Source: a virus (taxonomy: Duplodnaviria > Heunggongvirae > Uroviricota > Caudoviricetes). Taken from it: a stretch of DNA of 35,493 nt. The stretch lies in IMG/VR virus record IMGVR_UViG_2529293246_000006, one strand, 5' to 3'. How positions within the stretch are numbered: the first letter of the stretch is position 1; each line of letters opens with the position of its first letter. Positions 1 through 35,493 of this stretch are shown piece after piece. The translations under genes were made by a program, and so were the position numbers. The notes under the pieces were generated by a model. It worked only from the letters and a program-made list of their open reading frames with translations, was not told the origin of the DNA and made no database searches.

Positions 1-390
1 TTACTCCTTTTTCCCTGTATCGGCATCAGGTTCGCCATCAAACAGTTTGCCCTGCATCCGATCCAGTTCTTCTTTTCTGACCCGCTTCACCACGCTGTAA
101 ACCCACTGTAGTGAAACACCAAATTTGCGGGCCAGTTCGTGATGGTTGCGCCCGTCAAACTCCAGGAAAATTTCCCGGTCGCGCTGGCTGACCTTCCAGA
201 CCATGCCCATCGGAAAATAGACGTTTTGCCCACCCCAGACCTGCATCATGCGGTTCGCGACGGCCTGACCAATCTGGTCGGCAACTGCGGGTTCGATATC
301 AATAATCTCGCGGACAGTCTCAGAGGTATGCTGTGCCAGTTCCACCAACAGTTCCGGCCCTTTACTACGAAACTGATTCAGGTCGCTCAT
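1..390 (-). CDS. mor: Mor/C-family transcriptional activator (middle operon regulator-like), 129 aa
   Basis: ORF 1..420 trimmed to the internal ATG at 390 (MSDLNQF...), which gives the 129-aa size typical of Mor. That ATG overlaps the upstream gene's stop as ATGA. C-terminal HTH-like region; family assignment is from memory. Confidence 0.75.
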   Translation of the reverse strand: MSDLNQFRSKGPELLVELAQHTSETVREIIDIEPAVADQIGQAVANRMMQVWGGQNVYFPMGMVWKVSQRDREIFLEFDGRNHHELARKFGVSLQWVYSVVKRVRKEELDRMQGKLFDGEPDADTGKKE

Positions 391-815
391 TGCTTCACTC
401 CCGCAGCTCTGCGCTGCCACTTCTTCAGTTTCTCAATCACGCTACTTGCCTGCTCATTGCTGAGCCAGCGTAACGCGCTGATTCCGGTTTCCCGTTTAAC
501 CCACAGCGCCAGCGCCTGCTCTGAACTGTCACGGACGATGCCTGCGGCAGCCATTTCAAGCCATAGCGCACGGATTTTCTTTGACTGCGGATGGCTGTCG
601 AGCGGTAAGCCGGACTTGGCTTTCCCGGCAGGCTTAATGCGAAAGCCTTTCTTTTTCATTGATTCCAGCACGCGGTTTAGCTGTGGGGTATCCATCCCTT
701 TGGTTGAGGCTTTGCCGGTCAGCCCCTGTAGCATCTGGCGGTAGGTGTCCTCATCCATCTGGAGGTCGCTGCGGGCAATATGAATGAGTTGAATAAGACG
801 CTGCTTAGTCATCAT
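387..815 (-). CDS. gemA: GemA-like protein (Mu gp16 family)
   Basis: ORF 387..1004 trimmed to ATGATG at 815..810, preceded by an AGGAG Shine-Dalgarno. Protein starts MMTKQRLIQLIHIARSDL...; sits immediately upstream of mor as in Mu. Family assignment from memory. Confidence 0.6.
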   Translation of the reverse strand: MMTKQRLIQLIHIARSDLQMDEDTYRQMLQGLTGKASTKGMDTPQLNRVLESMKKKGFRIKPAGKAKSGLPLDSHPQSKKIRALWLEMAAAGIVRDSSEQALALWVKRETGISALRWLSNEQASSVIEKLKKWQRRAAGVKQ

Positions 816-1016
816 TGCCACTCCTTTTACCTGCGCCACCGATATAGTCGACATATAAAGGAAGCGCGACAGGCCAGCACAGGAACATAACGGCCCAACT
901 GATCCAGTGTCCGGTACCGCTGTAACGTGAGTAAAACCCTGAACGGCGGTGCAGTTCAGCAGTACACCACCCCACGAGACCATACCAGAACAAGGCACAT
1001 ACAATTGATTCAGCCA

Positions 1017-1706
1017 TCATAAGCCACTCCCCAGCTTCCGCTGTTCCTGCCCGCTGACAGGCTGATGTAGACGGACGTTTTCTCCCTCTCTGTAACCGAT
1101 GTGGCGGGACATGTCCGCGTCACGGGATTTACCGGCTTTGCGGCCAGAGGTTGTTCCTGAATCAGGGTATTTTTGTTCAAGCCAGAGGTTTGCCAGCTCC
1201 CGTTCTTCGCGGGACATAGCAAATAAATGAACCTCACTACGCACGGCCAGAACCCATCCTTCGGCAAATTTGTCACCACGGCTGGTCTTGGTCGTGTTTT
1301 TGATTCTTTTATTCTGCTGTCGAATATAGTTTTTACGGGCCATGATTAACTGTCTGGCCAGTACCTCCCATGTATATGAGGCCAGTTCAACCCGGTCTTT
1401 ATTACCGTAAAAGCCAACGCCGGGTTTAAAGCCGGAGTGAATAATAGACTTAACGCCAAATGCCACCTGGATAATATCCAGCAGACCCAGCATATAACGC
1501 GGCGGATTAACGCTACCTGCAGCCCAGTAGTTACTGACGCTTTCATCAATATCACTGAGTGCGAGGTCAGCCTGGGTGATGTTATAGGCCTGCATCAGTT
1601 TCTGGGCGCGTTGCAGTGCCAGTGCCGCTTCATGGGGGTTATCGGATTTAGCCAGCGCAAGTAGCTTTTTTAACTTCTCCAGCAGCTTTTCATTATTCTG
1701 CGGCAT
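1017..1706 (-). CDS. early protein with DUF2786-like N-terminus
   Basis: 229-aa ORF. N-terminal LLEKLKKLLALAKSDNPHEAALALQRAQKLMQAYNI matches the helical motif I associate with DUF2786 phage proteins. ATG at 1706. Confidence 0.55.
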   Translation of the reverse strand: MPQNNEKLLEKLKKLLALAKSDNPHEAALALQRAQKLMQAYNITQADLALSDIDESVSNYWAAGSVNPPRYMLGLLDIIQVAFGVKSIIHSGFKPGVGFYGNKDRVELASYTWEVLARQLIMARKNYIRQQNKRIKNTTKTSRGDKFAEGWVLAVRSEVHLFAMSREERELANLWLEQKYPDSGTTSGRKAGKSRDADMSRHIGYREGENVRLHQPVSGQEQRKLGSGL

Positions 1707-1989
1707 AAGTCACCCCCAGGCGTTCGGCAAGGCGTTCCAGCTTTTTCTGCTTATGAAAATCAATCATCAGGCCCATCCCGTTTAGGCGGAACTGTTCAAT
1801 TATGATTTCAACGTCAGCCAGTTCGCCTGCCAGATCAACTTCATTGCCCAGTCCGTTCATGTTGCGGGCAGCAGCAGCGGCCAGTTCGGCAGCTTCTTCC
1901 ATCAGCTTCAGAGCCTGAGCTTCTGGGCCGAAGGTTTTGAGGGCCAGATTGTAGATCGTCGAACGGTTATATAATTTCATGCCTTTCAT
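1693..1989 (-). CDS. small MazG-like all-alpha NTP pyrophosphohydrolase (putative)
   Basis: 98 aa. Contains LKLMEEAAELAAAA...DLAGELADVEIIIEQ, resembling the EExxE...ExxD metal-binding helices of MazG/HisE-type pyrophosphatases. Assignment by motif only. Confidence 0.4.
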   Translation of the reverse strand: MKGMKLYNRSTIYNLALKTFGPEAQALKLMEEAAELAAAAARNMNGLGNEVDLAGELADVEIIIEQFRLNGMGLMIDFHKQKKLERLAERLGVTYAAE

Positions 1990-2004
1990 CTTATCTTCCC
2001 CAAA

Positions 2005-2277
2005 TCAATGGCGTGATACGCTGATAACTTTCACGTGGCCGTCCTCAGTAATTTCCAGCTCGTACAGCGGCGGCATTTTTCTCAGGTGGTCACTGGTGGC
2101 GTGAAGAACGTAAATGGCCTGATCTAGGCCATTTGTTGCTACGATGGCGTGTGAAGCCATGCTGATTAATTTGATTAATACCTGCCGGATATGGTTGGGA
2201 TTTTCACAACCACATTCACTGATATATTCCGCGACAATTTCACGGGTCCGTTTTTCGGCTTCTTTTGCAGTAATCAT
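2005..2277 (-). CDS. hypothetical early protein (90 aa)
   Basis: ORF in the early operon; ATG at 2277 overlaps the upstream stop (ATGA). Confidence 0.5.
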   Translation of the reverse strand: MITAKEAEKRTREIVAEYISECGCENPNHIRQVLIKLISMASHAIVATNGLDQAIYVLHATSDHLRKMPPLYELEITEDGHVKVISVSRH

Positions 2278-2462
2278 TTCTTTGCCTCACAAGGGATGAA
2301 TTCCATGGCCGGGACTTCGGTGTAGTAATGCTGGCTACAGTGTGGGCATACCAGCGTGATGAGGACGGCTGGTACGCGGTACTTACCGGAGGAAATGACG
2401 CTGGCGTCGCTGAACTTCAGGGTGGTGATACCTTTCTGGCAGTTGATACATTTGATGGACAT
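2274..2462 (-). CDS. small zinc-ribbon protein (62 aa)
   Basis: Two Cys pairs (CINC ... CPHC) about 35 residues apart, typical of a zinc ribbon. Sits in the early accessory region. Confidence 0.5.
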   Translation of the reverse strand: MSIKCINCQKGITTLKFSDASVISSGKYRVPAVLITLVCPHCSQHYYTEVPAMEFIPCEAKK

Positions 2463-2540
2463 GATTTATTCCTTAATGCTGTTTTCGGCGTGCAGAAGCC
2501 CACGGCACTGACGCCGAAATAAAAAGAAATTGAATTAAAA

Positions 2541-3152
2541 TTAAATGGCAGCGATATCTAACGGAATATTAATTAGCTTCCCGTGTTTATCTTTCTCCCG
2601 GAAATTAATATAGGTTTTGGACATTGCCACCTGCAGTGATTCCGATATGGCCTCCATTGCCCGGTTCCAGCGCTCGTCCTGAATCTTGACGCGGCGCAGG
2701 GAAAGAATACGTCCGGTATTAAGCTGGCCCTCTTTGTCCACCTGAAAAGCATCGCTGATGATGGCCCGCAGGTTGGCGTTCGCGCCTTCCGACCACTCGG
2801 TGACGCACTCGTCTATCAGGTCTTTGGCAATCTGCAGCTCTGGCCCGAAGGTCAGGGTTTCCTGCACGCGGATGGTGATCTGCTGAGCACCGTCGAAGCT
2901 GCTGAAGGTCACGTTGCCTTTGGCACCGCCACGCGTTCTGCCGTACTTCTCGGCCACAAGGTCAAGCCAGGCATAGCACTCGTCAAAGGCACGACGCTTG
3001 AAGTCACTGAGTTCATCGCGTTTAACCTTCGCGGCGACAACCTGTTCTTTAACGAAAGAGTCCATCGCAAGGTCATAGTCAGACACCTGGTCAACCGGCA
3101 CCAGACGCCCCTTGCGGTCTTTCATGTAGTTTTCTTTATTTACTTCGCTCAT
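2541..3152 (-). CDS. conserved early protein of Mu-like phages (possibly DUF3164 family)
   Basis: 203-aa ORF in the semi-essential early region between the B-like ATPase and gemA. Family guess from memory; no similarity to Mu Gam noted. Confidence 0.45.
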   Translation of the reverse strand: MSEVNKENYMKDRKGRLVPVDQVSDYDLAMDSFVKEQVVAAKVKRDELSDFKRRAFDECYAWLDLVAEKYGRTRGGAKGNVTFSSFDGAQQITIRVQETLTFGPELQIAKDLIDECVTEWSEGANANLRAIISDAFQVDKEGQLNTGRILSLRRVKIQDERWNRAMEAISESLQVAMSKTYINFREKDKHGKLINIPLDIAAI

Positions 3153-3169
3153 CTCTGTTCACCTTATGG

Positions 3170-3439
3170 TTAATGTAACGACTCTGACCAGGTAATACGG
3201 CAGCCATGCAACTCAAAGACACCCTGACGGAAGCGCCCTGAGCCGTCATGGCCAACATGGGTATAACTCGCTTTGCCCTGCTCCAGCAGGCGGGCACAGT
3301 GCCCGTTGCGGGCGATACGGATAACCGGCTTACTGCCAGCAATCATGACGCTCTGCACGGTAGTGTTCATGGCGTTGAGCGCCATAATGGCGGACTGCAC
3401 CTTGTTCATCTGCTGGTTGATATCGGCGATGGATTTCAT
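3170..3439 (-). CDS. hypothetical small early protein (89 aa) at the kil position
   Basis: ORF immediately downstream of the B-like ATPase (stop at 3442), the position Kil occupies in Mu. No recognisable motif. Confidence 0.45.
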   Translation of the reverse strand: MKSIADINQQMNKVQSAIMALNAMNTTVQSVMIAGSKPVIRIARNGHCARLLEQGKASYTHVGHDGSGRFRQGVFELHGCRITWSESLH

Positions 3440-3441
3440 GC

Positions 3442-4608
3442 TTAAACTCCTTTGACGACGTCGGCGTTGACCTGCGGGACCCCGATTTCAGCAGCCAGAT
3501 TCATGGCGGCTATCACCAGGTTACTGACGGCCAGCGGATACAGCAGGCTGACCATGCTTTTACGGCTACTACCCAGATTGCTCAGACGGGCGCGGATGGC
3601 TTCCACTGCGCTGGCGTCCATGATGTCGGCCAGCTGCTTACCGGCACGTTGCAGTTTGAACGTCAGAAACTCTTCGAGGCTGTTGTCCAGCGGCAGCAAT
3701 TCAACCAACTCGCAGCGCTGGACGACCTCACGGACTTCCATGTTGCGTTCGGACAGTTTGTCTGCCAGTTCAGGCTGGCCAATCAGCACGATGGACAGCA
3801 GTTTTTTGAAGCCGGACTCCAGTTCGAAGAAGCGTTTAAGGTGCTTCAGCGTCGGAATGGGAAGGCTGTGGGCCTCCTCAATCACCAGAACGTGGCTGAA
3901 ACCCGCCTGACTGCTGTCCTTCAGGACTCGGTGCAACTGGCGGAAGCGGGCGTCCTGGCTGCGTTTGATACTCTCCAGCGGCGCGATGGTGCTGATGATG
4001 GCCTCGGCGATAGCTGCCGCCTTCAGGGTTTTGCCCTTCACGTCGTTGTCTTCCATGGCGATGATGTATGGCTCGATTACAATCACCGGCGCGTTCTCGC
4101 GGTTGACGCGTTCAATCAGGTCGCGGCGCAGCGTGGATTTACCCGCACCGGACTCGCCGATAACCGCCAGAAAGCCACCATGGCGGGCGGTCTGGAACAG
4201 CGCCTCACGCACGTAGCGGATATCCGGCGTGGTGAACACATCGTCCGCGCCCTGCATGGCTTCATCGGCGAACGGATCACGGAAAAGGCCAAACGCTTTT
4301 TTGGTTGCTGGAAATAACACCTGCTTTTTGAGTAACATGTTCTCTTCCTCACTGAGGTTGGTTTTATCGGTAGTACCCGCTGTACGGGGCGTGACAGCGC
4401 CCTGTGCAGCATCAAAACTTTTCACTGTATCAATCCCCTTACTTTCCAGATACAACGCCAGACGCTGGCGTACCTCTTCGGGGCTGGTGCGTGGCCACTC
4501 GTTATGGTTCACAATCTGGGCCAGCGTGGCCTCGGAAACGGCGACGGCTCTTGCCACCACCGCCTGCGGGATGCGGGCCTCTTTCAGTTGTTGCTTCAGT
4601 ACCAGCAT
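3442..4608 (-). CDS. transposition ATPase (MuB-like AAA+ target DNA activator)
   Basis: 388 aa. Walker A GESGAGKST and Walker B VLVIEEAH. Directly downstream of the transposase. Strong GAGGAGG Shine-Dalgarno before the ATG at 4608. Confidence 0.85.
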   Translation of the reverse strand: MLVLKQQLKEARIPQAVVARAVAVSEATLAQIVNHNEWPRTSPEEVRQRLALYLESKGIDTVKSFDAAQGAVTPRTAGTTDKTNLSEEENMLLKKQVLFPATKKAFGLFRDPFADEAMQGADDVFTTPDIRYVREALFQTARHGGFLAVIGESGAGKSTLRRDLIERVNRENAPVIVIEPYIIAMEDNDVKGKTLKAAAIAEAIISTIAPLESIKRSQDARFRQLHRVLKDSSQAGFSHVLVIEEAHSLPIPTLKHLKRFFELESGFKKLLSIVLIGQPELADKLSERNMEVREVVQRCELVELLPLDNSLEEFLTFKLQRAGKQLADIMDASAVEAIRARLSNLGSSRKSMVSLLYPLAVSNLVIAAMNLAAEIGVPQVNADVVKGV

Positions 4609-4618
4609 GCCTTCCTCC

Positions 4619-6388
4619 TCAGTTACCGTTAACGATGCTGATAACGCTGTTGCGGGCCGGAGTGGTCAGGGTAACCATCACCTCATCCAGCGCGGCTTCA
4701 GGTACGCCATCCGGGTACTGCGCCGTTAACTGGCGGTAATGTTCCGGCGTCCAGATATGGCCGTTAGCGCCAAACTTCTCGCGCAGGGCTTTCGCCGCCT
4801 CCACATGGGTCAGCGGACGCTGCTCAATACGCGGCCCGCGCACGTCTGAAGCCTGACCGCGCTTCGGCATATAGGCCGGAAGCGTGGTGTCGTCGATATG
4901 TTTGTACGGGTCAAGTCGCCCGCCGAACGGCAGCGCCTTCGCCTTGCGTGCAGCAGCTGCATCGGTGGCGTTATCGGTGCCCGTAACCAGCTCTTCGATT
5001 TCTTTTGCCGCCGTCTGCGCCGGGGTCTCCGGCAGGGCTTTGTAGTTTTCGCCAAATACCGCCGCGTTTTCGGCAAAGCCGAACTCGTTCTTTCTGACCT
5101 CCTCGACCAGGAAGAACGTCTCGTGACCGTCCTCACCGGTCAGCACCACCTGCGCCACATCGCTGCGCCACGGGTTACGGGTAATCATCAGTTTTTCGCC
5201 GACCAGTACGCCCGGTACCGTCGAAACGTCAAACTCATTGCCCCGGAACGAGACGCGCAGTTTTGGTGTGACCTTACGGAGTTCCGGTGCGGCCACCGCC
5301 AGTTCGCGGCAAACCTCAACGGATGGCGCTTTTTTCAGCTGGTCAGCAGTAATCTTCAGCCAGATATCCGTGCGGGTTTTACCGTGGCGGCTGTGGACCG
5401 CCGTGGCGTTAAAGTGGCTGCGCCATTTCACCGCCAGTGCGTTCAGTTCGTCCAGGCTATGAACCGGCTGGAATTTGAGACCCGGCTCCAGTTTACGTTC
5501 GATAATGTCACGGGCCTTTTCCACCTGCCCGGTGGCGCGGGCGTTATGCGGCTTGTGCGCTATCAGATTGATGCCCAGCGAGCGGCACATGTTTTTCGTC
5601 ATGCCAGCGGTGTTCGCCGAACCGGGATCAAGGTAGAGTATTTTCGGCACGCCGTGCAGCACGTCCGCGCCGCCGCGCTCCTGCATGGCGTTGATAAGCA
5701 CAGAACAGAGGTTCTCACCAGATTCCGCACCCATCACGTACTCAACGTAAATCCAGCCGCTGGTATGGTCGGTAATCTCGTAACTCCACACGCGGTCACT
5801 GGCGATGCGGGCGATGTTGGCAGGCTTGTTCTTGTAGAACTTCGAGCTGTCCATCACCTGCAACCCTTTATGGCCGTTGCTCAGGTAGTAAAGCGTACAA
5901 AGTGAGGCATCAATCTCCCAGACGTGATTGGGATGCAGGCTGGCCATCTCGGACGACGGGGCCGGTGCGTCAAGCTGTTCCGGGTGCAGACCATAGTTCC
6001 GCAGGGCGCGGCTGATGGTATCCTCGGACAGCGGGAAAAACTCGCCTGTGGCCTCGTCCGTTCTGCCAGCAGTGATAAAGCCGTTTGACCGCAGGGTCTC
6101 CACCGCATCCGCGATGGAATACAGGCGCTTACCGTTCTTACGGGTGGCCTCGCGCAGCGTGGCAGATATCAGCGCGGCTTCGTCGCGGCTCAGGGCACTG
6201 CGCCCGGCATCGGCGCGTTTTTTACGTTTGTCAGTCACTGATACCTCCTTCAGCTTGCGCAGCAGGGTGGCGCGGGAAATGCCCAGTTCGGCGCAGGCGG
6301 CATCATATATCGCACCACGCTTACCATGCCCCGCGTCACGTGCCGCGCGGGCAACATAAACCAGTCGTTCAGTCAGGGCGGCACTCAT
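4619..6388 (-). CDS. DDE transposase (Mu/BcepMu-type, integrase-core fold)
   Basis: 589 aa. N-terminal HTH region, candidate catalytic Asp residues in HVWEIDAS and YLDPGSAN, followed by a conserved Glu region. Sits just upstream of the ATPase as in transposable phages. Confidence 0.85.
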   Translation of the reverse strand: MSAALTERLVYVARAARDAGHGKRGAIYDAACAELGISRATLLRKLKEVSVTDKRKKRADAGRSALSRDEAALISATLREATRKNGKRLYSIADAVETLRSNGFITAGRTDEATGEFFPLSEDTISRALRNYGLHPEQLDAPAPSSEMASLHPNHVWEIDASLCTLYYLSNGHKGLQVMDSSKFYKNKPANIARIASDRVWSYEITDHTSGWIYVEYVMGAESGENLCSVLINAMQERGGADVLHGVPKILYLDPGSANTAGMTKNMCRSLGINLIAHKPHNARATGQVEKARDIIERKLEPGLKFQPVHSLDELNALAVKWRSHFNATAVHSRHGKTRTDIWLKITADQLKKAPSVEVCRELAVAAPELRKVTPKLRVSFRGNEFDVSTVPGVLVGEKLMITRNPWRSDVAQVVLTGEDGHETFFLVEEVRKNEFGFAENAAVFGENYKALPETPAQTAAKEIEELVTGTDNATDAAAARKAKALPFGGRLDPYKHIDDTTLPAYMPKRGQASDVRGPRIEQRPLTHVEAAKALREKFGANGHIWTPEHYRQLTAQYPDGVPEAALDEVMVTLTTPARNSVISIVNGN

Positions 6389-6391
6389 GGG

Positions 6392-7300
6392 TTATGCCTC
6401 CTGCCCGTTAATCTCTGGCGTCGGGTCAGTCAGCCATGAAGGGGCGGCGTTGCCTGTCGGCTCGTCCGGCAGGTCAAATGTGGAGCGTAGGCTACGCGCG
6501 GTGCTTTCCAACTGGCAGACCAGACCGGCCATAAAGTCTCTGGGGGTATCAATCATATTTTCAGCACAGTATGCGCACAGGGTCTCAAAGGCGCTGGACA
6601 GTCGAACGGCGATGGCAGATTCCGCCTCAACCGCTAACGCTGTAACTTCCGCACGCAGCTTCTTCACCTCTTCGTCAGGCTTGGGCGGCTGGATACGGGA
6701 TTTCTTCTCCAGTTTTGTGGAGAGCGAGTCGATTTTTTCGTTTTTGTCGGCAAGCACGCGCTGTTGTGCTGCGTTGGTTTCGCGGGCTTCACGTAGGGCT
6801 TGACGCAATTCTCTACAGCTCATGCGGTCGACATCATCTAGTTTCAGACCCGCTACAGTGCCACCATCAGCCAGTTCAGCGAGAGATTCATCATCTTCAG
6901 TCATCAATTCAAAAAGTTTGGATTTACCCAAATGTGCCAACGTTGGCACATTTGATTTCAGTGCGGGGGATAAGTATTTAGTCGATGCTTGCATCATCCG
7001 CACAGAAGTTCGGTATGGTAAGCCCAACTCATTTTCAAGAATGTTAATAAATTCCCCGTGCGGCTCATTTTCTTTAAGAATTACAAGGCGCTTACCTGCT
7101 TCCAGCATCGCCTCAGCACTCTGTGCCATATAAAACCGTGTTTCGTGAACAATACGATCACGTTCATACGGCAGACCATCACCGAACTGCTGCATGATTT
7201 CGAGGCGATGTTCGGTCATGGCATTAAGACTAACGTTGAGGCCATCACTCAGCGGAGCATCTTCCATTAGTTCAACTGGTTGTGATTTTGTGCGTCCCAT
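6392..7300 (-). CDS. hypothetical early protein (302 aa, coiled-coil rich)
   Basis: ORF with an AAGGAG Shine-Dalgarno before the ATG at 7300. Central region is Glu/Lys/Ala-rich and looks coiled-coil. No family recognised. Confidence 0.5.
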   Translation of the reverse strand: MGRTKSQPVELMEDAPLSDGLNVSLNAMTEHRLEIMQQFGDGLPYERDRIVHETRFYMAQSAEAMLEAGKRLVILKENEPHGEFINILENELGLPYRTSVRMMQASTKYLSPALKSNVPTLAHLGKSKLFELMTEDDESLAELADGGTVAGLKLDDVDRMSCRELRQALREARETNAAQQRVLADKNEKIDSLSTKLEKKSRIQPPKPDEEVKKLRAEVTALAVEAESAIAVRLSSAFETLCAYCAENMIDTPRDFMAGLVCQLESTARSLRSTFDLPDEPTGNAAPSWLTDPTPEINGQEA

Positions 7301-7615: not shown

Positions 7616-7836
7616 GACGCCTCCTTGAGGATGCCGGGGGTAACTTCTTTGCCTATTGCGACCGAAAGGTCTCGCAAAATCCGATAAGTCAAACGACCGC
7701 GTGGAAGTTCGCTTTTGCCTGCCCAGCGGCTGACAGCCTGGGTGACTGTTCGTGGCTCATAGCCCGCGTTAAGCGCGAACTGGCGCAAGCTACTGCCTCT
7801 TTCAACCAGCCGTGCCCGAACTTGTTGTTTGTTCAT
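7612..7836 (-). CDS. ner: Ner-like DNA-binding protein
   Basis: 74 aa from the ATG at 7836. ...LRQFALNAGYEPRTVTQAVSR... resembles the Ner/Nlp family. First gene of the minus-strand early operon, divergent from the repressor. Confidence 0.7.
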   Translation of the reverse strand: MNKQQVRARLVERGSSLRQFALNAGYEPRTVTQAVSRWAGKSELPRGRLTYRILRDLSVAIGKEVTPGILKEAS

Positions 7837-7924
7837 ATGCACCGTGTTCCTGTTGGGTTATGATGTACTCTATTGGGTCTATTGTACGCACCCGAACGGG
7901 TATGTCAAATTGAGATATGTTCAA
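7837..7924. promoter_or_regulatory. divergent ner/repressor intergenic control region (putative operators and promoters)
   Basis: 88-bp spacer between divergent start codons. Contains TGTTGGGTTA and TATTGGGTCT direct repeats and a CCCGAACGGG inverted repeat. Function inferred from position only. Confidence 0.4.
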
Positions 7925-8335
7925 ATGAGTATAAAAGAGAGATTGCGCGAAGCGATGGATGCTAAGAGTCTGACAATTAAGGCATTGTCAGAGTTGTCAA
8001 AAATTCCATATCGCTCACTTCAAAACTATCTGCGTGGAGAGAGAGAACCTAATGCAGAGGCTCTTGTTGCGCTAAGCACCCATTTGAACATATCAATAGA
8101 TTGGCTACTTACTGGTAAAGGGGAAGCTGTTGGGGTAGAGAAAGCACAGCCAGCTAATCAGGAGCAGCATTTCAACCAGTCTGATCTGAAGTTATTGGAG
8201 CTGCTCAACCAACTGGAGCCAGAGGTGCGAAAAGATTTGCTGCGAGGCGCTGAGGAAAAACAGCGAATGATTGATATGGAAAAACAGCTTAAGGAGCTGT
8301 CCGCAGCGTTCGAAAGATTAAAAAATACGGGTTAA
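7925..8335 (+). CDS. XRE-family HTH repressor (putative prophage maintenance repressor)
   Basis: ORF 7829..8335 trimmed to the ATG at 7925 (MSIKERLREAMDAKSLTIKALSELSKIPYRSLQNYL...). Classic XRE HTH with a C-terminal helical domain. Divergent from ner. Confidence 0.7.
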   Translation: MSIKERLREAMDAKSLTIKALSELSKIPYRSLQNYLRGEREPNAEALVALSTHLNISIDWLLTGKGEAVGVEKAQPANQEQHFNQSDLKLLELLNQLEPEVRKDLLRGAEEKQRMIDMEKQLKELSAAFERLKNTG

Positions 8336-8951: not shown

Positions 8952-9722
8952 TCAAAAATTACAAATTACCAGCTCTTTCTTCGGGCTGGGTTTGCCTGTT
9001 ACCTTAAGGTTGTAGCTGATATCAACCGACTGCATGTTCAGACCGTTGAATACCTGCCGCATTTCCGGGATATCGTTCACTGATATAATCATCTTCCCTT
9101 TGATCCTTCGCGCTAAATCTGCCATGTGATCATAGTTTTCCAGCCCGAACTCCACACCATAGCCTTCCGTTCCCCAGTACGGTGGGTCACAGTAGAACAG
9201 CGTATGCGGGCGATCATATCGCTCTATGCACTGGTGCCAGTCCAGATGCTCTATCAGCGTTCTCGACAGGCGCAGGTGTGCCATCGACAGTTCTTCCTCA
9301 ATACGCAGCAAATTGAAGCGCGGCGCACTGGTTGTAGAGGTACCGAATGTGTGATCGGCGACCTTGCCGCCAAATGCCTGTTTCTGCAGGTAGTAGAACC
9401 GGGCCGCCCGCTGAATGTCGGTGAGCGTTTCTTCCGGCGTATCCTGCAACCATTTGTAAATCTGACGGCTGACCAGCGCCCATTTGAACTGGCGAATAAA
9501 TTCTTCCAGATGATGCTTGACCACCCGATAGAGGTTCACCAGTTCCCCGTTGATATCGTTAATGACTTCGGTCTTGCTGGGAGTCTTTAGGAAATAGAGC
9601 GCAGCTGCCCCGCAGAACGGCTCCACATAGCAGGTATGGGCCGGAAACAATGGTAAAATATGCTTCGCCAGACGACGTTTACCGCCAATCCATGGGACGA
9701 TGGGTAAAGATTGTTCTTTCAT
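8952..9722 (-). CDS. dam: DNA adenine methyltransferase (Dam-like, N6-adenine D12 class)
   Basis: ORF 8952..9746 trimmed to the ATG at 9722 (MKEQSLPIVPWIGGKRRL...). FCGAA (motif I) and the DPPY catalytic motif (YCDPPYWGTEGYG). Opposite strand to its neighbours. Confidence 0.85.
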   Translation of the reverse strand: MKEQSLPIVPWIGGKRRLAKHILPLFPAHTCYVEPFCGAAALYFLKTPSKTEVINDINGELVNLYRVVKHHLEEFIRQFKWALVSRQIYKWLQDTPEETLTDIQRAARFYYLQKQAFGGKVADHTFGTSTTSAPRFNLLRIEEELSMAHLRLSRTLIEHLDWHQCIERYDRPHTLFYCDPPYWGTEGYGVEFGLENYDHMADLARRIKGKMIISVNDIPEMRQVFNGLNMQSVDISYNLKVTGKPSPKKELVICNF

Positions 9723-9769
9723 TATCCGTAAGCCTTTTGCAATCAATGAAAATATGGCAGGCTAGTCTG

Positions 9770-9781
9770 GTCTCGCGAGAC
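9770..9781. promoter_or_regulatory. perfect 12-bp palindrome GTCTCGCGAGAC upstream of dam
   Basis: Seen directly in the dam/holin divergent intergenic region, about 50 bp upstream of the dam start. Candidate operator; function unknown. Confidence 0.3.
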
Positions 9782-9969
9782 TGACTGAACCCTGGTCGGC
9801 TCACAGTGCATACCTGTGGGTTGATGACCAGCCTGGTGTTACCGCACCGGGCTGGTCGTTCTTTCAAAGCCATCATGCGGTTCACGTCTGCATCCTCACT
9901 ATTAACGCTGTTTAAAATCCCTTTCCCCGACCATTTGTGATGCTGTCTCCACTACACAAGGAGACGCTC

Positions 9970-10320
9970 ATGAAAAACCTGAAAAAATTCATTCCCCCTG
10001 TTAAAAAGCCACGTCTCAGCGGCTGGCTGCTGACCGCTGTGCTGCTGCTCGGCACCATCGGTCTGGTATCGCCCCAGCAGCTGCCGGTGGTTGTCTACAA
10101 GCTATCACTCATCACGCTGGCGGCAGTATTGGGCTACTGGCTTGACCGTTCGCTTTTCCCCAAAGCCCGTCCCGGTCAGTACCTGAAGCATGATGACAGG
10201 CTGATGGCTGATGGTCGCTTCCCTGTCCAGACTGGCCTTCACCTGGTCTTTTCTGCTGCGCTAATCCGCCGTGCGCTGATTGTTGCTGCAGTCTGTCTGG
10301 CCGTAGCGATGGGGCTTTAA
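9970..10320 (+). CDS. putative holin (three predicted TM segments)
   Basis: ORF 9937..10320 trimmed to the ATG at 9970, preceded by an AAGGAG Shine-Dalgarno. Three hydrophobic stretches. Immediately precedes the endolysin. Confidence 0.5.
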   Translation: MKNLKKFIPPVKKPRLSGWLLTAVLLLGTIGLVSPQQLPVVVYKLSLITLAAVLGYWLDRSLFPKARPGQYLKHDDRLMADGRFPVQTGLHLVFSAALIRRALIVAAVCLAVAMGL

Positions 10321-11057
10321 TGATGACCCTCTATATGTACTGGCCTCAGGTTGTCTGGGCCGTGCTGGTACTGCTGGGGCTGGGCATCGAACTGGCCCGC
10401 TACGGGCAGGCCCGAACGGGTAAGCACAGTTTCTGGTGGCAGCTCTTTGGTTCAGCAACGGTAGCCTGGCTGCTCTGGTGTGGCGGCTTCTTCAGTCAGG
10501 CCCGCGCTGCCCAGCCACCGCAGACCGCGCTGCAGTATCGCGACGATGTGATCCGTAATGCCCGGCTTGAATGGGGAATGTCTGCGCCGGTGGCCGACTT
10601 CGCCGCGCAGCTGCATCAGGAAAGCGGCTGGCGACCTGATGCGGTCTCGCCGGTTGGCGCTCAGGGACTGGCGCAGTTTATGCCCACCACCGCTGACTGG
10701 ATAAGTCAGCTGATGCCGGGGCTTAACAGCCGTGAACCGTTTAATCCGTCTTGGGCCATCCGGGCGCTGGTCAGCTATGACCGCTGGCTGTGGCAACGAG
10801 TCAGCGCCGTCAATGACTGCGAGCGTATGGCCATGACGCTGTCAGGCTATAACGGTGGTCTGGGCTGGGTACAGCGGGACAAACGGCTGGCCTCGCAGCA
10901 GGGGCTGGACAGCACCCGCTGGTTTGGTCATGTCGCCACGGTGAATGCCGGACGCAGCACTGCCAACTGGCGGGAGAACCGTCATTATCCGCAGCGCATC
11001 CTGCACGAACTGGCCCCGCGTTATCTCACCTGGGGAGGCGGCAGCTGTGTGGACTAA
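10320..11057 (+). CDS. endolysin, lytic transglycosylase (SLT domain) with hydrophobic N-terminal segment
   Basis: 245 aa. Contains ...LHQESGWRPDAVSPVGAQGLAQFMPTTADW..., resembling the SLT catalytic region. The hydrophobic N-terminus suggests a signal-anchor (SAR-type) endolysin. Confidence 0.75.
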   Translation: MMTLYMYWPQVVWAVLVLLGLGIELARYGQARTGKHSFWWQLFGSATVAWLLWCGGFFSQARAAQPPQTALQYRDDVIRNARLEWGMSAPVADFAAQLHQESGWRPDAVSPVGAQGLAQFMPTTADWISQLMPGLNSREPFNPSWAIRALVSYDRWLWQRVSAVNDCERMAMTLSGYNGGLGWVQRDKRLASQQGLDSTRWFGHVATVNAGRSTANWRENRHYPQRILHELAPRYLTWGGGSCVD

Positions 11058-32843: not shown

Positions 32844-33442
32844 TCACCACTCAATAATCACAATACCATTTTTACCGGAGCCGGATTTATTACTACTGTT
32901 AGCAGCAATCCCACCACCACCGCCCCCATAACCAGGCGCATCCAGACCCATCCCTGTAGATCCTCGGCCTCCGGGGCCGCCACCGTTGCCGCCGCAATTT
33001 GCCGAGTTGGCTGAACCGTCATCCCCCCAACCCAACCCCTGATTAACGTCTCCGCCAAAACCGGCTCCCGACGAACCACCGGATGTTGATGTGCCGCCAT
33101 ACCCATACTGACCACCAGTCGCGGAGAGATAAGAACCAAAAGAAGATGACCCACCGGATGCGCCATTACCTGTAGTTACGCCAGCACCAGCAGAGCCAAC
33201 GGTTACCGTAACGCTTGAAACGTCTGTGAGATCGAGAAGCAATTTCGAATATCCGCCACCGCCGCCACCGCCCCCGCGCTTTGTTGTATCGGTAGTCGAC
33301 CCGCCAGACGCTCCACCACCAATTACTGTCACCTGGCATTTTCGCCCTTGTTGGAGTGCCTCAGGAACGTTCCAGTTAGATACTCCAGGGGTGTTGAAAA
33401 CAACTATGTTTTGCAGGCCAAAGGCCGATGCTCCTAAACCAA
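32844..33442 (-). CDS. alternative tail-fibre C-terminal variable domain (Sv'-like), promoterless cassette, Gly-rich
   Basis: Minus-strand ORF reads ...FSKNLGLGASAFGLQNIV... across the right inversion site, in frame with the constant part (FLQNL) after inversion. Contains long Gly runs (GGGGGGGG, GGGGGG). Confidence 0.55.
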
Positions 33443-33456
33443 GGTTTTTGGAAAAG
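33431..33456. repeat. right inversion site (gix/hix-like), core AA at 33441-33442
   Basis: CTCCTAAACC-AA-GGTTTTTGGAAAAG is the inverted partner of the site at 31571-31596; 61 bp upstream of the invertase start. Confidence 0.7.
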
Positions 33457-33516
33457 CAGTTACACATAGCGAAATCTGCAAAAATCCTCCTACCGCGACA
33501 TAGAGGAGGAAAATTG

Positions 33517-34098
33517 ATGGCCGTCATTGGTTATATCCGCGTATCAACAATCGACCAGAACAGCGATTTACAGCGTAATGCGCTCACAAGCGCAAACTGT
33601 GACCGCATTTTTGAAGACCGTATGAGCGGAAAAGTTGCCAGCCGCCCCGGTCTGAAACGCGCTTTAAAGTGCGTTAATAGCGGAGACACCCTGGTCGTGT
33701 GGAAACTGGACAGGCTGGGGCGCAGCGTTAAGAACCTGATCGCACTGATATCAGAATTACATGAACGCGGTGCCCACTTCCGCTCTTTAACAGACAGTAT
33801 TGATACCAGCACTGCCATGGGGCGCTTCTTTTTCCATGTGATGTCAGCACTGGCGGAGATGGAACGTGAGCTGATCGTCGAACGAACACTGGCCGGGTTG
33901 GCAGCAGCCAGAGCACAGGGACGCATAGGTGGAAGGCCCAATGCATTAAAACCGCATGAGCGGGAACAGATTGGGAGACTATTGGCCAGGGGACATACTC
34001 GCCAGCAACTGGCCATAATCTACGGAGTGGGATTATCGACGCTCTATCGGTATTTTCCGGTAGATAGTCAGAGGAAGGATGAAGCGGTAGGATTGTAA
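33517..34098 (+). CDS. gin: site-specific serine DNA invertase (Gin/Hin/Pin/Cin family)
   Basis: 193 aa. MAVIGYIRVSTIDQNSDLQRNAL...GDTLVVWKLDRLGRS...SLTDSIDTS..GRFFFHVMSALAEMERELIVERT closely matches the Gin/Hin sequences I recall, including the catalytic Ser in VSTIDQ. GAGGAGGA Shine-Dalgarno. Confidence 0.9.
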   Translation: MAVIGYIRVSTIDQNSDLQRNALTSANCDRIFEDRMSGKVASRPGLKRALKCVNSGDTLVVWKLDRLGRSVKNLIALISELHERGAHFRSLTDSIDTSTAMGRFFFHVMSALAEMERELIVERTLAGLAAARAQGRIGGRPNALKPHEREQIGRLLARGHTRQQLAIIYGVGLSTLYRYFPVDSQRKDEAVGL

Positions 34099-34132: not shown

Positions 34133-34176
34133 CATTTATCTCACGGAAATGGGCGCATTTATCGCGCGGCGCATCA
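34133..34176. repeat. prophage right terminus with two transposase-binding-like repeats; phage DNA ends ...CA at 34176
   Basis: CATTTATC at 34133-34140 and 34156-34163. Read inward from the end, the terminus is TGATGCGCCGCGCGATAAATGCG..., resembling the Mu R end TGAAGCGGCGCACGAAAAACGCG...CGATAAATGCG as I recall it. Confidence 0.65.
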
Positions 34177-35493
34177 TTTCATGGTTACGCCGGTGATTAA
34201 ACCAATCACCGCCACTACCATCAGGTAATAGGCAGGCATCATCAGATTCTGCGAGCTTTCGACCAGCCAGGCCGCCAGTGTTGGCGTCAGACCGGCAACC
34301 AGCACCGAAATATTAAATGCCGCCGCCAGCGCGCTGTAACGGATATGCGTCGGGAACATCGCTGGCAAGGTAGAAGCCATAACGCCCGTAAAGCAGTTAA
34401 GGATCACCGCCAGCATCAGTAACCCGGCAAAAATCAGGCCGATGACGTTACTGTTAATCAGAATAAACGCCGGGATCGCCAACACAAACAGGGCAACACT
34501 ACCAAGTAGCACAAACGGACGACGGCCAAAACGGTCACTCAGCAAGCCCATCACCGGCTGGACAAACAGCATACCGATCATAATGGCGATAATAATCAGC
34601 ACCCCGTGGTCTTCGGAGTAATGCAGGTTATGCGACAAATAACTCGGCATATAGGTCAGCAACATGTAGTAAGTCACGTTGGTGGCAATTACCAGACCAA
34701 TACATGTCAACAGGCTGCGCCAGTGTTTGGTGGCAATCTCTTTAAACGAGACTTTCGGGCCATCCTGCAAACCTTCGCGGTCGCCCTGTTCCAGTTTATC
34801 GACATGCTGCTGGAACGCCGGAGTTTCTTCCAGCGCATGGCGCAGGTAAAGCCCGATAATCCCTAACGGCAGAGCAATAAAGAACGGAATACGCCAGCCC
34901 CAGTCGAGGAAGTTCGCTTCGCCGACAATGGTCGAAATTAACACCACTACGCCAGCACCCAGCACAAACCCGGCAATAGAACCAAAGTCCAGCCAGCTGC
35001 CCATAAAGCCACGTTTACGGTCAGGGGAGTATTCCGCAACAAATATCGACGCCCCGGTATATTCACCGCCGACCGAGAAACCTTGTGCCATCTTACAGAT
35101 CAACAGCAGAATCGGTGCCCAAATACCAATCGTGTCGTAGGACGGTATTAAGCCAATACAGAACGTACTGATCGACATAATCACAATAGTGATAGCGAGG
35201 ATCTTCTGGCGACCATATTTATCGCCCAACATACCAAAGAAGAGTCCGCCAAGCGGTCGAATCAGAAAGGGAACGGAGAACGTGGCAAGTGCAGCAACCA
35301 TCTGCACGCTGGGGTCAGCCCCCGGGAAAAAAACTTTACCTAATGCGTAAGCAACAAAACCATAAACACCAAAATCAAACCATTCCATTGCATTACCCAG
35401 TGATGCTGCGGTAATGGCTTTACGCAGTTTACCGTCATCAATAATGGTGACATCACGAAGGGTAATCGGTTTTACTTTTTTCCTTTTCAGCAT
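34174..35493 (-). CDS. proP: proline/glycine-betaine MFS transporter ProP, 3'-truncated by the prophage insertion (439 of ~500 codons)
   Basis: Protein starts MLKRKKVKPITLRDVTIIDDGKLRKAITAASLGNAMEWFDFGVYGFVAYALGKVFFPG..., matching E. coli ProP from memory. The frame ends ...GVTMK and then a TGA formed by the phage terminal TGA at 34174-34176. The C-terminal domain is missing. Confidence 0.8.
   Translation of the reverse strand: MLKRKKVKPITLRDVTIIDDGKLRKAITAASLGNAMEWFDFGVYGFVAYALGKVFFPGADPSVQMVAALATFSVPFLIRPLGGLFFGMLGDKYGRQKILAITIVIMSISTFCIGLIPSYDTIGIWAPILLLICKMAQGFSVGGEYTGASIFVAEYSPDRKRGFMGSWLDFGSIAGFVLGAGVVVLISTIVGEANFLDWGWRIPFFIALPLGIIGLYLRHALEETPAFQQHVDKLEQGDREGLQDGPKVSFKEIATKHWRSLLTCIGLVIATNVTYYMLLTYMPSYLSHNLHYSEDHGVLIIIAIMIGMLFVQPVMGLLSDRFGRRPFVLLGSVALFVLAIPAFILINSNVIGLIFAGLLMLAVILNCFTGVMASTLPAMFPTHIRYSALAAAFNISVLVAGLTPTLAAWLVESSQNLMMPAYYLMVVAVIGLITGVTMK

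Follow-up and report, generated by a model that had tools for sequence, protein, structure and literature searches.

We analyzed a 35,493-nucleotide (nt) stretch of viral DNA (Caudoviricetes; IMG/VR record IMGVR_UViG_2529293246_000006), referred to here as the window, in which an earlier reading of the sequence (the original prediction) had singled out positions 1017 to 3439 as an early accessory region of six small genes between a gene for a B-like ATPase and gemA. The window is a BcepMu/B3-type transposable prophage of Escherichia coli. Prophages that are 95 to 100% identical over the 2,423-bp interval are present in 24 of 5,426 complete E. coli genomes, and the interval is 99.7% identical to "Escherichia phage Phi06_2974 B." All early-operon genes lie on the minus strand and are transcribed in the order DDE transposase, B, orf89, and so on to GemA and Mor. 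We consider it rather likely that the block is a semi-essential early region in which two near-fixed functions, a Kil-family protein (orf89) and a DUF3164 protein (orf203) substituting for Gam, are combined with exchangeable cassettes and cotranscribed with the transposase and B. The genes, with E values of the family matches where available, are as follows.

4619-6388, minus strand: DDE transposase
3442-4608, minus strand: B-like transposition ATPase of the ExeA/AAA_22 type, the upstream boundary of the region (PF13401, 3e-20; PHROG 296 "DNA transposition protein," 5e-89)
3170-3439, minus strand: orf89, 89 amino acids (aa), remote homolog of Mu Kil (phrog_2041; NCBI "HI_1482 family")
2541-3152, minus strand: orf203, 203 aa, DUF3164 (PF11363, 7e-80)
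2463-2540, minus strand: 78-nt intergenic gap
2274-2462, minus strand: orf62, 62 aa, four-cysteine zinc ribbon (phrog_3401)
2005-2277, minus strand: orf90, 90 aa, with an ATGA overlap with orf62 (phrog_3691)
1693-1989, minus strand: orf98, 98 aa, small MazG-like protein (PHROG 2245, 6.6e-30)
1017-1706, minus strand: orf229, 229 aa, DUF2786 plus DUF7168 (Pfam)
805-1020, minus strand: orf71, 71 aa, with two hydrophobic stretches (phrog_6436; annotated in RefSeq)
387-815, minus strand: GemA, the downstream boundary of the region (PF06252, 9e-41; 35% identity to Mu GemA)
1-390, minus strand: Mor, the middle-operon activator and last early-operon gene (PF08765, 1e-42)

The six open reading frames (ORFs) have exactly the predicted lengths of 89, 203, 62, 90, 98, and 229 aa and lie on the minus strand between the two boundary genes. 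Because all six match PHROG families (E values of 7e-30 to 1e-82), they are genes rather than chance ORFs, and RefSeq annotates the same six coding sequences in identical E. coli prophages. The count of six was nevertheless too low, since the interval between B and gemA holds a seventh gene, orf71, which shares 4 nt with orf229 and 11 nt with gemA. Each of the six proteins falls into a catalogued Pfam or PHROG family with an unknown or general function, and the biochemical activities considered below are inferred in every case. Formally, orf62 and orf90 might not be genes, as both are short and neither reaches the threshold of any Pfam family (for orf62, of any named Pfam family). This is highly improbable, given their PHROG matches (9e-32 and 2e-44, respectively), their 56 and 28 unique relatives with invariant residues, their Shine-Dalgarno motifs, the ATGA overlap, and the RefSeq annotation.

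Gam and DUF3164 are mutually exclusive in the sampled transposable phages

The product of orf203 matches DUF3164 over its full length (PF11363, E = 7.4e-80, residues 9 to 201 on positions 1 to 193 of 194). It is acidic (isoelectric point [pI] of 5.7, within the range of 5.7 to 6.0 seen for DUF3164 proteins), and the family has the conserved motifs GGxKGN, SFDG, IDEC, and LRR. DUF3164 is present in 209 phage records, 50 plasmid records, and prophages of many bacterial species. According to the original prediction, none of the six proteins looks like Mu Kil or Gam. With respect to Gam, this was borne out: the Phage_Mu_Gam profile (PF07352) gave no Pfam or PHROG match in any of the six ORFs, and a local Gam hidden Markov model (HMM) found nothing anywhere in the window. 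With respect to Kil, it was not, as orf89 turned out to be a remote relative of that family (see below). Escherichia phage PhiKM, whose neighboring genes are syntenic with those of the window, has Gam where the window has DUF3164.

We determined which protein occupies this slot in three samples of loci. One was chosen by B and consisted of 79 IMG/VR and reference loci with at least 81% identity in B, in which the ORFs from B to GemA were clustered de novo. The slot after orf89 held DUF3164 in 40 of these loci and Gam in 38 (a cluster matching PF07352 at 8e-41); no locus had both, and the lone locus with neither had the region deleted. A sample chosen by GemA, unbiased toward either protein, consisted of 80 loci in genomes dereplicated to species level, with a range that took in Enterobacterales, Moraxella, Pseudomonas, Burkholderia, Neisseria, Pasteurellaceae, Vibrio, Desulfovibrio, and Treponema, and the 74 loci with at least 6 kb upstream were counted. 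DUF3164 alone was found in 57 and Gam alone in 15, with neither in 2 and both in none (Fisher p = 7e-14, phylogeny ignored). The remaining sample was chosen by DUF3164 itself (80 diverse loci, 43 to 99% identity, 10-kb flanks). In nearly all of these loci where the markers were found, DUF3164 lay downstream of B (of either the ExeA or the MuB type) and upstream of GemA on the same strand, and a significant Gam match occurred in 1 of the 80 (L226). Among individual elements, DUF3164 occurs without Gam in BcepMu, B3, KS10, VW-6B, and the window, and Gam occurs without DUF3164 in Mu and PhiKM. Gam is conserved at 42 to 64% identity from E. coli to Rhodobacter, and thus it is unlikely that Gam proteins were missed.

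The two states interleave along the ranking of loci by GemA similarity, which implies many switches, and each occurs with both types of B. One such exchange could be located to the borders of a single gene in Pseudomonas Casadabanvirus genomes. LPB1 has ORF12, ORF12.1 (DUF3164), and ORF14, whereas MP29 has ORF12, ORF13 (Gam), and ORF14. The proteins on either side are 95 to 99% identical, and the DNA identity of 96% breaks off at one border of the exchanged ORF and returns at the other. The numbering of the LPB1 ORFs itself reflects the replacement. The exchanged segments are the following.

6575-7192 of L237 (LPB1) versus 6837-7733 of L238 (MP29): exact gene-for-gene swap

Gam and DUF3164 are thus mutually exclusive in the sampled transposable phages. 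Roseophages with DUF3164 have been described as having "lacked Gam," although the two facts were not linked in that report (PMC5488378), and we found no paper in the literature linking DUF3164 to Gam. Since the phages carry one protein or the other and almost never both or neither, we infer that DUF3164 shares the service performed by Gam and is a functional substitute for it by non-orthologous replacement. In that role DUF3164 would shield linear phage DNA from host exonuclease (RecBCD), either as a DNA-end-binding protein or, as its acidity might suggest, as an inhibitor of the nuclease. In its broadest form the proposal is tentative, and we give it slightly less than even weight: DUF3164 would be a hitherto unrecognized and structurally distinct class of host-nuclease antagonist or DNA-end protector that has taken the place of the Ku-like Gam repeatedly, in phages of Enterobacterales, Pseudomonas, Burkholderia, Neisseria, and further groups. 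In that case, the phrog_2041/Kil superfamily would add another early factor that is directed at the host and near universal in these phages.

Alternatively, the alternation could be the product of a recombination hot spot or of lineage history rather than of a shared function, with DUF3164 serving, for example, as a transposition or replication accessory protein or as a virion-associated protein. Consistent with this, adjoining slots swap nonanalogous cassettes, DUF3164 is unlike Gam in sequence and fold and is acidic whereas Mu and E. coli Gam are near neutral, DUF3164 peptides have been found in a virion proteome (PMC5488378), and one element (L226) holds both proteins. However, morons are characterized by presence or absence, whereas this slot holds exactly one of the two proteins in 72 of the 74 loci chosen by GemA and in 78 of the 79 chosen by B, a pattern that argues against a mere recombination hot spot. 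The occurrence of both states with both B types, their interleaving along the GemA ranking, and the exactness of the LPB1/MP29 swap likewise speak against this explanation, which we regard as unlikely.

Several observations weigh against substitution of Gam by DUF3164. Position alone is no proof of equivalent function, because other slots exchange nonanalogous cassettes: the DUF2786 slot elsewhere holds a different cassette of 128 to 159 aa, and the neighboring cassette in other loci is a PF04447-type pyrophosphohydrolase. L226, the only locus of this kind, has both a half-length Gam-like ORF (PF07352, 6e-12) and DUF3164 (1917-2345 and 9692-10600); it encodes RepA, ParA, a D12 methylase, and a tyrosine integrase and thus resembles a plasmid rather than a Mu-like phage. 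The structural model of DUF3164, built on a shallow alignment limited to relatives with at least 71% identity, is of moderate quality (predicted local distance difference test score [pLDDT] of 77, predicted template modeling score [pTM] of 0.46) and shows no similarity to Gam/Ku (PDB 2P2U) or to any DNA-binding or inhibitor fold. In a 2026 paper, AlphaFold combined with Foldseek gave no assignment for DUF3164, which is still uncharacterized, and we found no experimental study in the literature that deals with one of the six proteins or, more generally, with DUF3164 or DUF2786. Sequence and profile searches of the PDB with DUF3164 were empty. We also considered DUF3164 as a diverged Gam and rejected this possibility on the basis of an hhalign probability of 0.2% and the lack of fold similarity.

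orf89 and the Kil family

orf89 starts 2 nt after B, in the same position as Mu kil and VW-6B kil, and its product is basic (pI 9.9). Profile comparisons show that it is a remote homolog of Mu Kil. Both orf89 (4.8e-3) and Mu Kil (1.3e-9) match phrog_6381, annotated "Kil." In hhalign comparisons, the orf89 family and the Kil family were matched with probabilities of 62 to 69% (E values of 4e-5 to 8e-5); 15 diverse orf89 relatives aligned to four Kil sequences at 69% (4.4e-5) over 67 columns, approximately the whole of Kil, and a reversed-sequence control gave 0.1%. An HMM of the orf89 family, made from 84 sequences (83 of 97 cluster representatives from an exhaustive profile search plus the window protein), scored Mu Kil at 2.5e-6, VW-6B "kil" at 1e-5, BcepMu gp07 at 2e-6, and B3 ORF10 at 2e-4, against a background of 15 other Mu early proteins that all scored 0.03 or worse. 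When members of the family were scanned against 38,880 PHROGs, 76 of 76 matched phrog_2041, and the other PHROGs reached by those 76 were the Kil families phrog_2743 (5 members) and phrog_6381 (4 members), plus one single hit elsewhere. Among sibling loci, L167 and L168 have a Kil-like ORF directly after MuB, and L169 and L170 have an orf89-like one there; in the sibling phage VW-6B, the ORF in this position is Kil-like.

The relationship is a distant one, and two results count against it: the hhalign probability stays below 70%, and the pairwise BLAST comparison of orf89 with Mu Kil was insignificant, giving only an eight-residue LxGCxIxW match at both C termini. Mu kil, when expressed, kills the host and yields spherical cells (Waggoner 1989, cited in PMC3961180). 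By analogy, orf89 would most likely perturb host envelope or cell-shape functions early in lytic growth, and the Kil link would carry a poorly understood host-killing function over to the B3/BcepMu branch. Given a Kil-like protein (orf89) and a protein in the Gam slot (orf203), the block is probably in part host directed, as far as these two genes are concerned.

Exchangeable cassettes and expression of the early operon

The remainder of the block varies between close relatives, in keeping with its description as accessory. The near-identical prophages KP12 and E. coli 571 lack orf90, and in KP12 orf229 is replaced. The GC content at third codon positions of orf90 is 0.48, compared to 0.65 to 0.70 in its upstream neighbors; together with its absence from near-identical prophages, this fits a recently acquired, dispensable cassette, and orf90 had no informative relatives. 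We picture both orf62 and orf90 as small cassettes that would accompany the near-fixed genes, with orf90 being dispensable. The zinc ribbon predicted for orf62 was confirmed in that its four cysteines (C5, C8, C39, and C42, forming two CxxC pairs) are 100% conserved in 56 unique relatives.

The MazG-like and DUF2786-like assignments made in the original prediction also held. Membership of orf98 in the family of MazG-like all-alpha nucleoside triphosphate pyrophosphohydrolases is supported by the annotation of phrog_2245 ("nucleoside triphosphate pyrophosphohydrolase"), by its newest RefSeq name ("nucleoside triphosphate pyrophosphohydrolase family protein"), and by an intact EExxE...ExxD motif (E31, E32, and E35, followed by E56-x-x-D59). 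Across 55 relatives, conservation is 93 to 98% at E31, E32, E35, D59, E61, and E65; within the motif, it is 95 to 98% at E31, E32, and E35 and 93% at D59 but less than 85% at E56. Telling against this assignment, the Pfam scores fall below the gathering thresholds (PRA-PH, 19.5 bits versus 21.3; MazG, 13.5 versus 22), and a search by sequence found no solved relative. In the MazG-like homologs of two divergent relatives, L081 (9422-9727) and L084 (9420-9728), the ExxD half of the motif is lost (E-K-M-A-G), and these homologs may have lost their activity or taken on another role. House-cleaning is the classic function of MazG-like enzymes, and orf98 would probably act on the nucleotide pool. 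Some relatives of the window prophage have an additional cassette, a PF04447 dATP/dGTP pyrophosphohydrolase, that lies between the MazG-like gene and DUF2786, and BcepMu has a gene annotated as "pyrophosphatase":

9616-10107 of L013, plus strand: PF04447 cassette
2668-3105 of L156, minus strand: BcepMu gp06, annotated "pyrophosphatase"

Taken together, the two indicate that pyrophosphatases of different families recur beside DUF3164 or Gam.

The product of orf229 is basic (pI 9.7) and matches PF10979 (DUF2786; 2.1e-13, residues 7 to 45) and PF23771 (DUF7168; 1.5e-24, residues 47 to 190). A DUF2786 protein adjoins DUF3164 or GemA in 24 of the 80 diverse DUF3164 loci and is also found as B3 ORF5, and relatives of orf229 are occasionally fused to an SprT-like protease domain. 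The orf229 model is good (pLDDT of 83, pTM of 0.75), and its core is weakly KH-like, with a best Foldseek E value of 0.13 and no GXXG in the aligned family. This evidence was too weak to retain orf229 as a true KH protein. orf229 is probably a nucleic-acid-binding protein; no solved relative was found by sequence, and no paper in the literature gives DUF2786 a function.

Every ORF has an ATG start and a Shine-Dalgarno-like motif, and from B to Mor, in transcription order, the spacers are +2, +17, +78, -4, +15, -14, -4, -11, and -4 nt (negative values denote overlaps). The predicted tight translational coupling therefore applies to spacers of -14 to +17 nt and fails at a single point, the 78-nt gap between orf203 and orf62. 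Two features upstream of the transposase are as follows.

6392-7300, minus strand: DUF3102 protein, directly upstream of the transposase
7881-7908, minus strand: predicted sigma-70-like promoter (TTGACA, 16-nt spacer, TACAAT; 11 of 12 consensus matches)

The predicted promoter, reading from 7908 to 7881, is the probable early promoter of the whole leftward operon, and a scan from 7900 down to 1, through Mor, found no terminator-like site on the minus strand. With one strong predicted promoter and no terminator-like site before Mor, early cotranscription can reasonably be expected, which agrees with the early expression claimed for these genes; the reading of the block as a Mu-type semi-essential early region is supported. 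The early block would be transcribed from this one promoter and translated largely by coupling. The promoter lies between the early operon and a divergent helix-turn-helix repressor gene (plus-strand ORF 7829-8335), and the interval 7881-7908 is probably the early promoter and operator region. The DUF3102 protein is also encoded by B3 (ORF13) and BcepMu (gp10) and represents a widespread early family in this phage type. In the gap at 2463-2540, CGGCGT at 2516-2511 and ACGCCG at 2491-2486 form an inverted repeat around a 19-nt loop; a T-rich stretch precedes the repeat, and no T run follows it. The gap may serve in RNA processing or stability. We also considered it as an internal promoter or terminator and dropped this reading, as the scan found no minus-strand site there.

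We compared the six ORFs with all Mu early proteins by BLASTP and phmmer and found nothing significant. Weak leads linking orf62 to Mu gp6 and orf98 to Mu gp14 failed family-HMM tests (P of ~0.007 to 0.008, at background level), and in such tests no Mu counterpart was detected for orf203, orf62, orf90, orf98, or orf229. Thus, five of the six proteins lack a detectable Mu counterpart, and the block is not simply a set of known Mu early proteins. Neither the six ORFs nor orf71 had a match below an E value of 0.01 in PADLOC-DB, which holds defense proteins only and no anti-defense models, and an NCBIfam scan of the ORFs was uninformative. An anti-defense role for the block, as raised in the original prediction, is plausible as a conjecture. 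A further alternative is that the block mainly serves phage housekeeping (DNA handling, nucleotide-pool sanitation, and regulation for replicative transposition) rather than host takeover or anti-defense. Mu-like phages of bacteria as distant as Gammaproteobacteria and Bacteroidetes widely share DUF3164, the Kil-like gene, and DUF2786; a house-cleaning MazG-like enzyme and a protein that looks nucleic acid binding would suit such a role, and the lack of any PADLOC or anti-defense signal is in line with it. However, Mu Kil (PMC3961180) and Mu Gam (PMC8705779) both act on host functions, and several cassettes are dispensable among near-identical prophages, so that we consider a mainly housekeeping block doubtful.

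Elsewhere in the window, a DNA adenine methylase gene (about 8952-9746, minus strand), annotated in identical E. coli prophages, lies between the repressor region and the lysis genes. A resolvase/invertase gene (33226-34098, plus strand) adjoins an opposite-facing glycine-rich tail-fiber-like ORF (32844-33527, minus strand), and this arrangement looks like a Gin-type invertible host-range segment. A host major facilitator superfamily sugar transporter gene occupies the right end of the window (34174-35493, minus strand), which places the right end of the prophage near 34.1 kb. The same prophage interrupts adiA in E. coli AW1.7 (L236) and the integrase of a P2-like prophage in NCTC_13148 (L001), differing sites that are consistent with near-random transpositional insertion.

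Comparison with Mu, BcepMu, and B3

The region itself is ordinary, being a standard early accessory block in a type of prophage that public E. coli genomes already contain. What makes it useful is the comparative result, which offers a testable Gam-like function for the widespread DUF3164 and extends the Kil family. Mu Gam and lambda Gam are used as tools in recombineering and in the imaging of DNA breaks. If the proposal is correct, DUF3164 would be a new class of protein for protecting linear DNA.

Burkholderia phage BcepMu and Pseudomonas phage B3 (Bcepmuvirus/Beetrevirus type, as is PhiKM) have the same leftward early operon, ending with GemA and Mor at the left end, and rightward late genes. 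In BcepMu, B3, and PhiKM, the order is likewise DUF3102, DDE transposase, ExeA-type B, a small Kil-like ORF, DUF3164 (Gam in PhiKM), small cassettes, GemA, and Mor. B3 ORF6 and ORF5 are the same pair of DUF3164 and DUF2786 plus DUF7168 proteins as in the window, and in BcepMu the "pyrophosphatase" adjoins DUF3164. The sets of small cassettes differ: those of the window prophage are the zinc ribbon, orf90, and the small MazG-like gene, and it lacks the HU and SSB-like genes that BcepMu and KS10 carry. With the MazG superfamily, which includes phage MazG and the PF04447 dATP/dGTP pyrophosphohydrolase, orf98 shares the EExxE...ExxD motif on two helices, but it is only 98 aa long.

Mu Kil (gp5; 74 aa, compared to 89 aa for orf89) is, like orf89, encoded by the first gene after B. 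Both proteins have a helix followed by RP-x-I-x-I/V and then a C-terminal G-C-x-I-x-W, and the similarity is remote only, with Mu Kil in PHROG 2743 and orf89 in PHROG 2041. Unlike Mu Kil, orf89 has an extra conserved cysteine and a G-x-A-x-Y...G-x-F/Y-R-x-G-x-F segment. Mu Gam, a Ku-like DNA-end-binding protein of the PDB 2P2U family, and DUF3164 are encoded in one and the same slot, flanked by B/Kil and GemA, with the same orientation, and are similar in size; they have no sequence, Pfam, or fold similarity, and DUF3164 is acidic and has motifs of its own.

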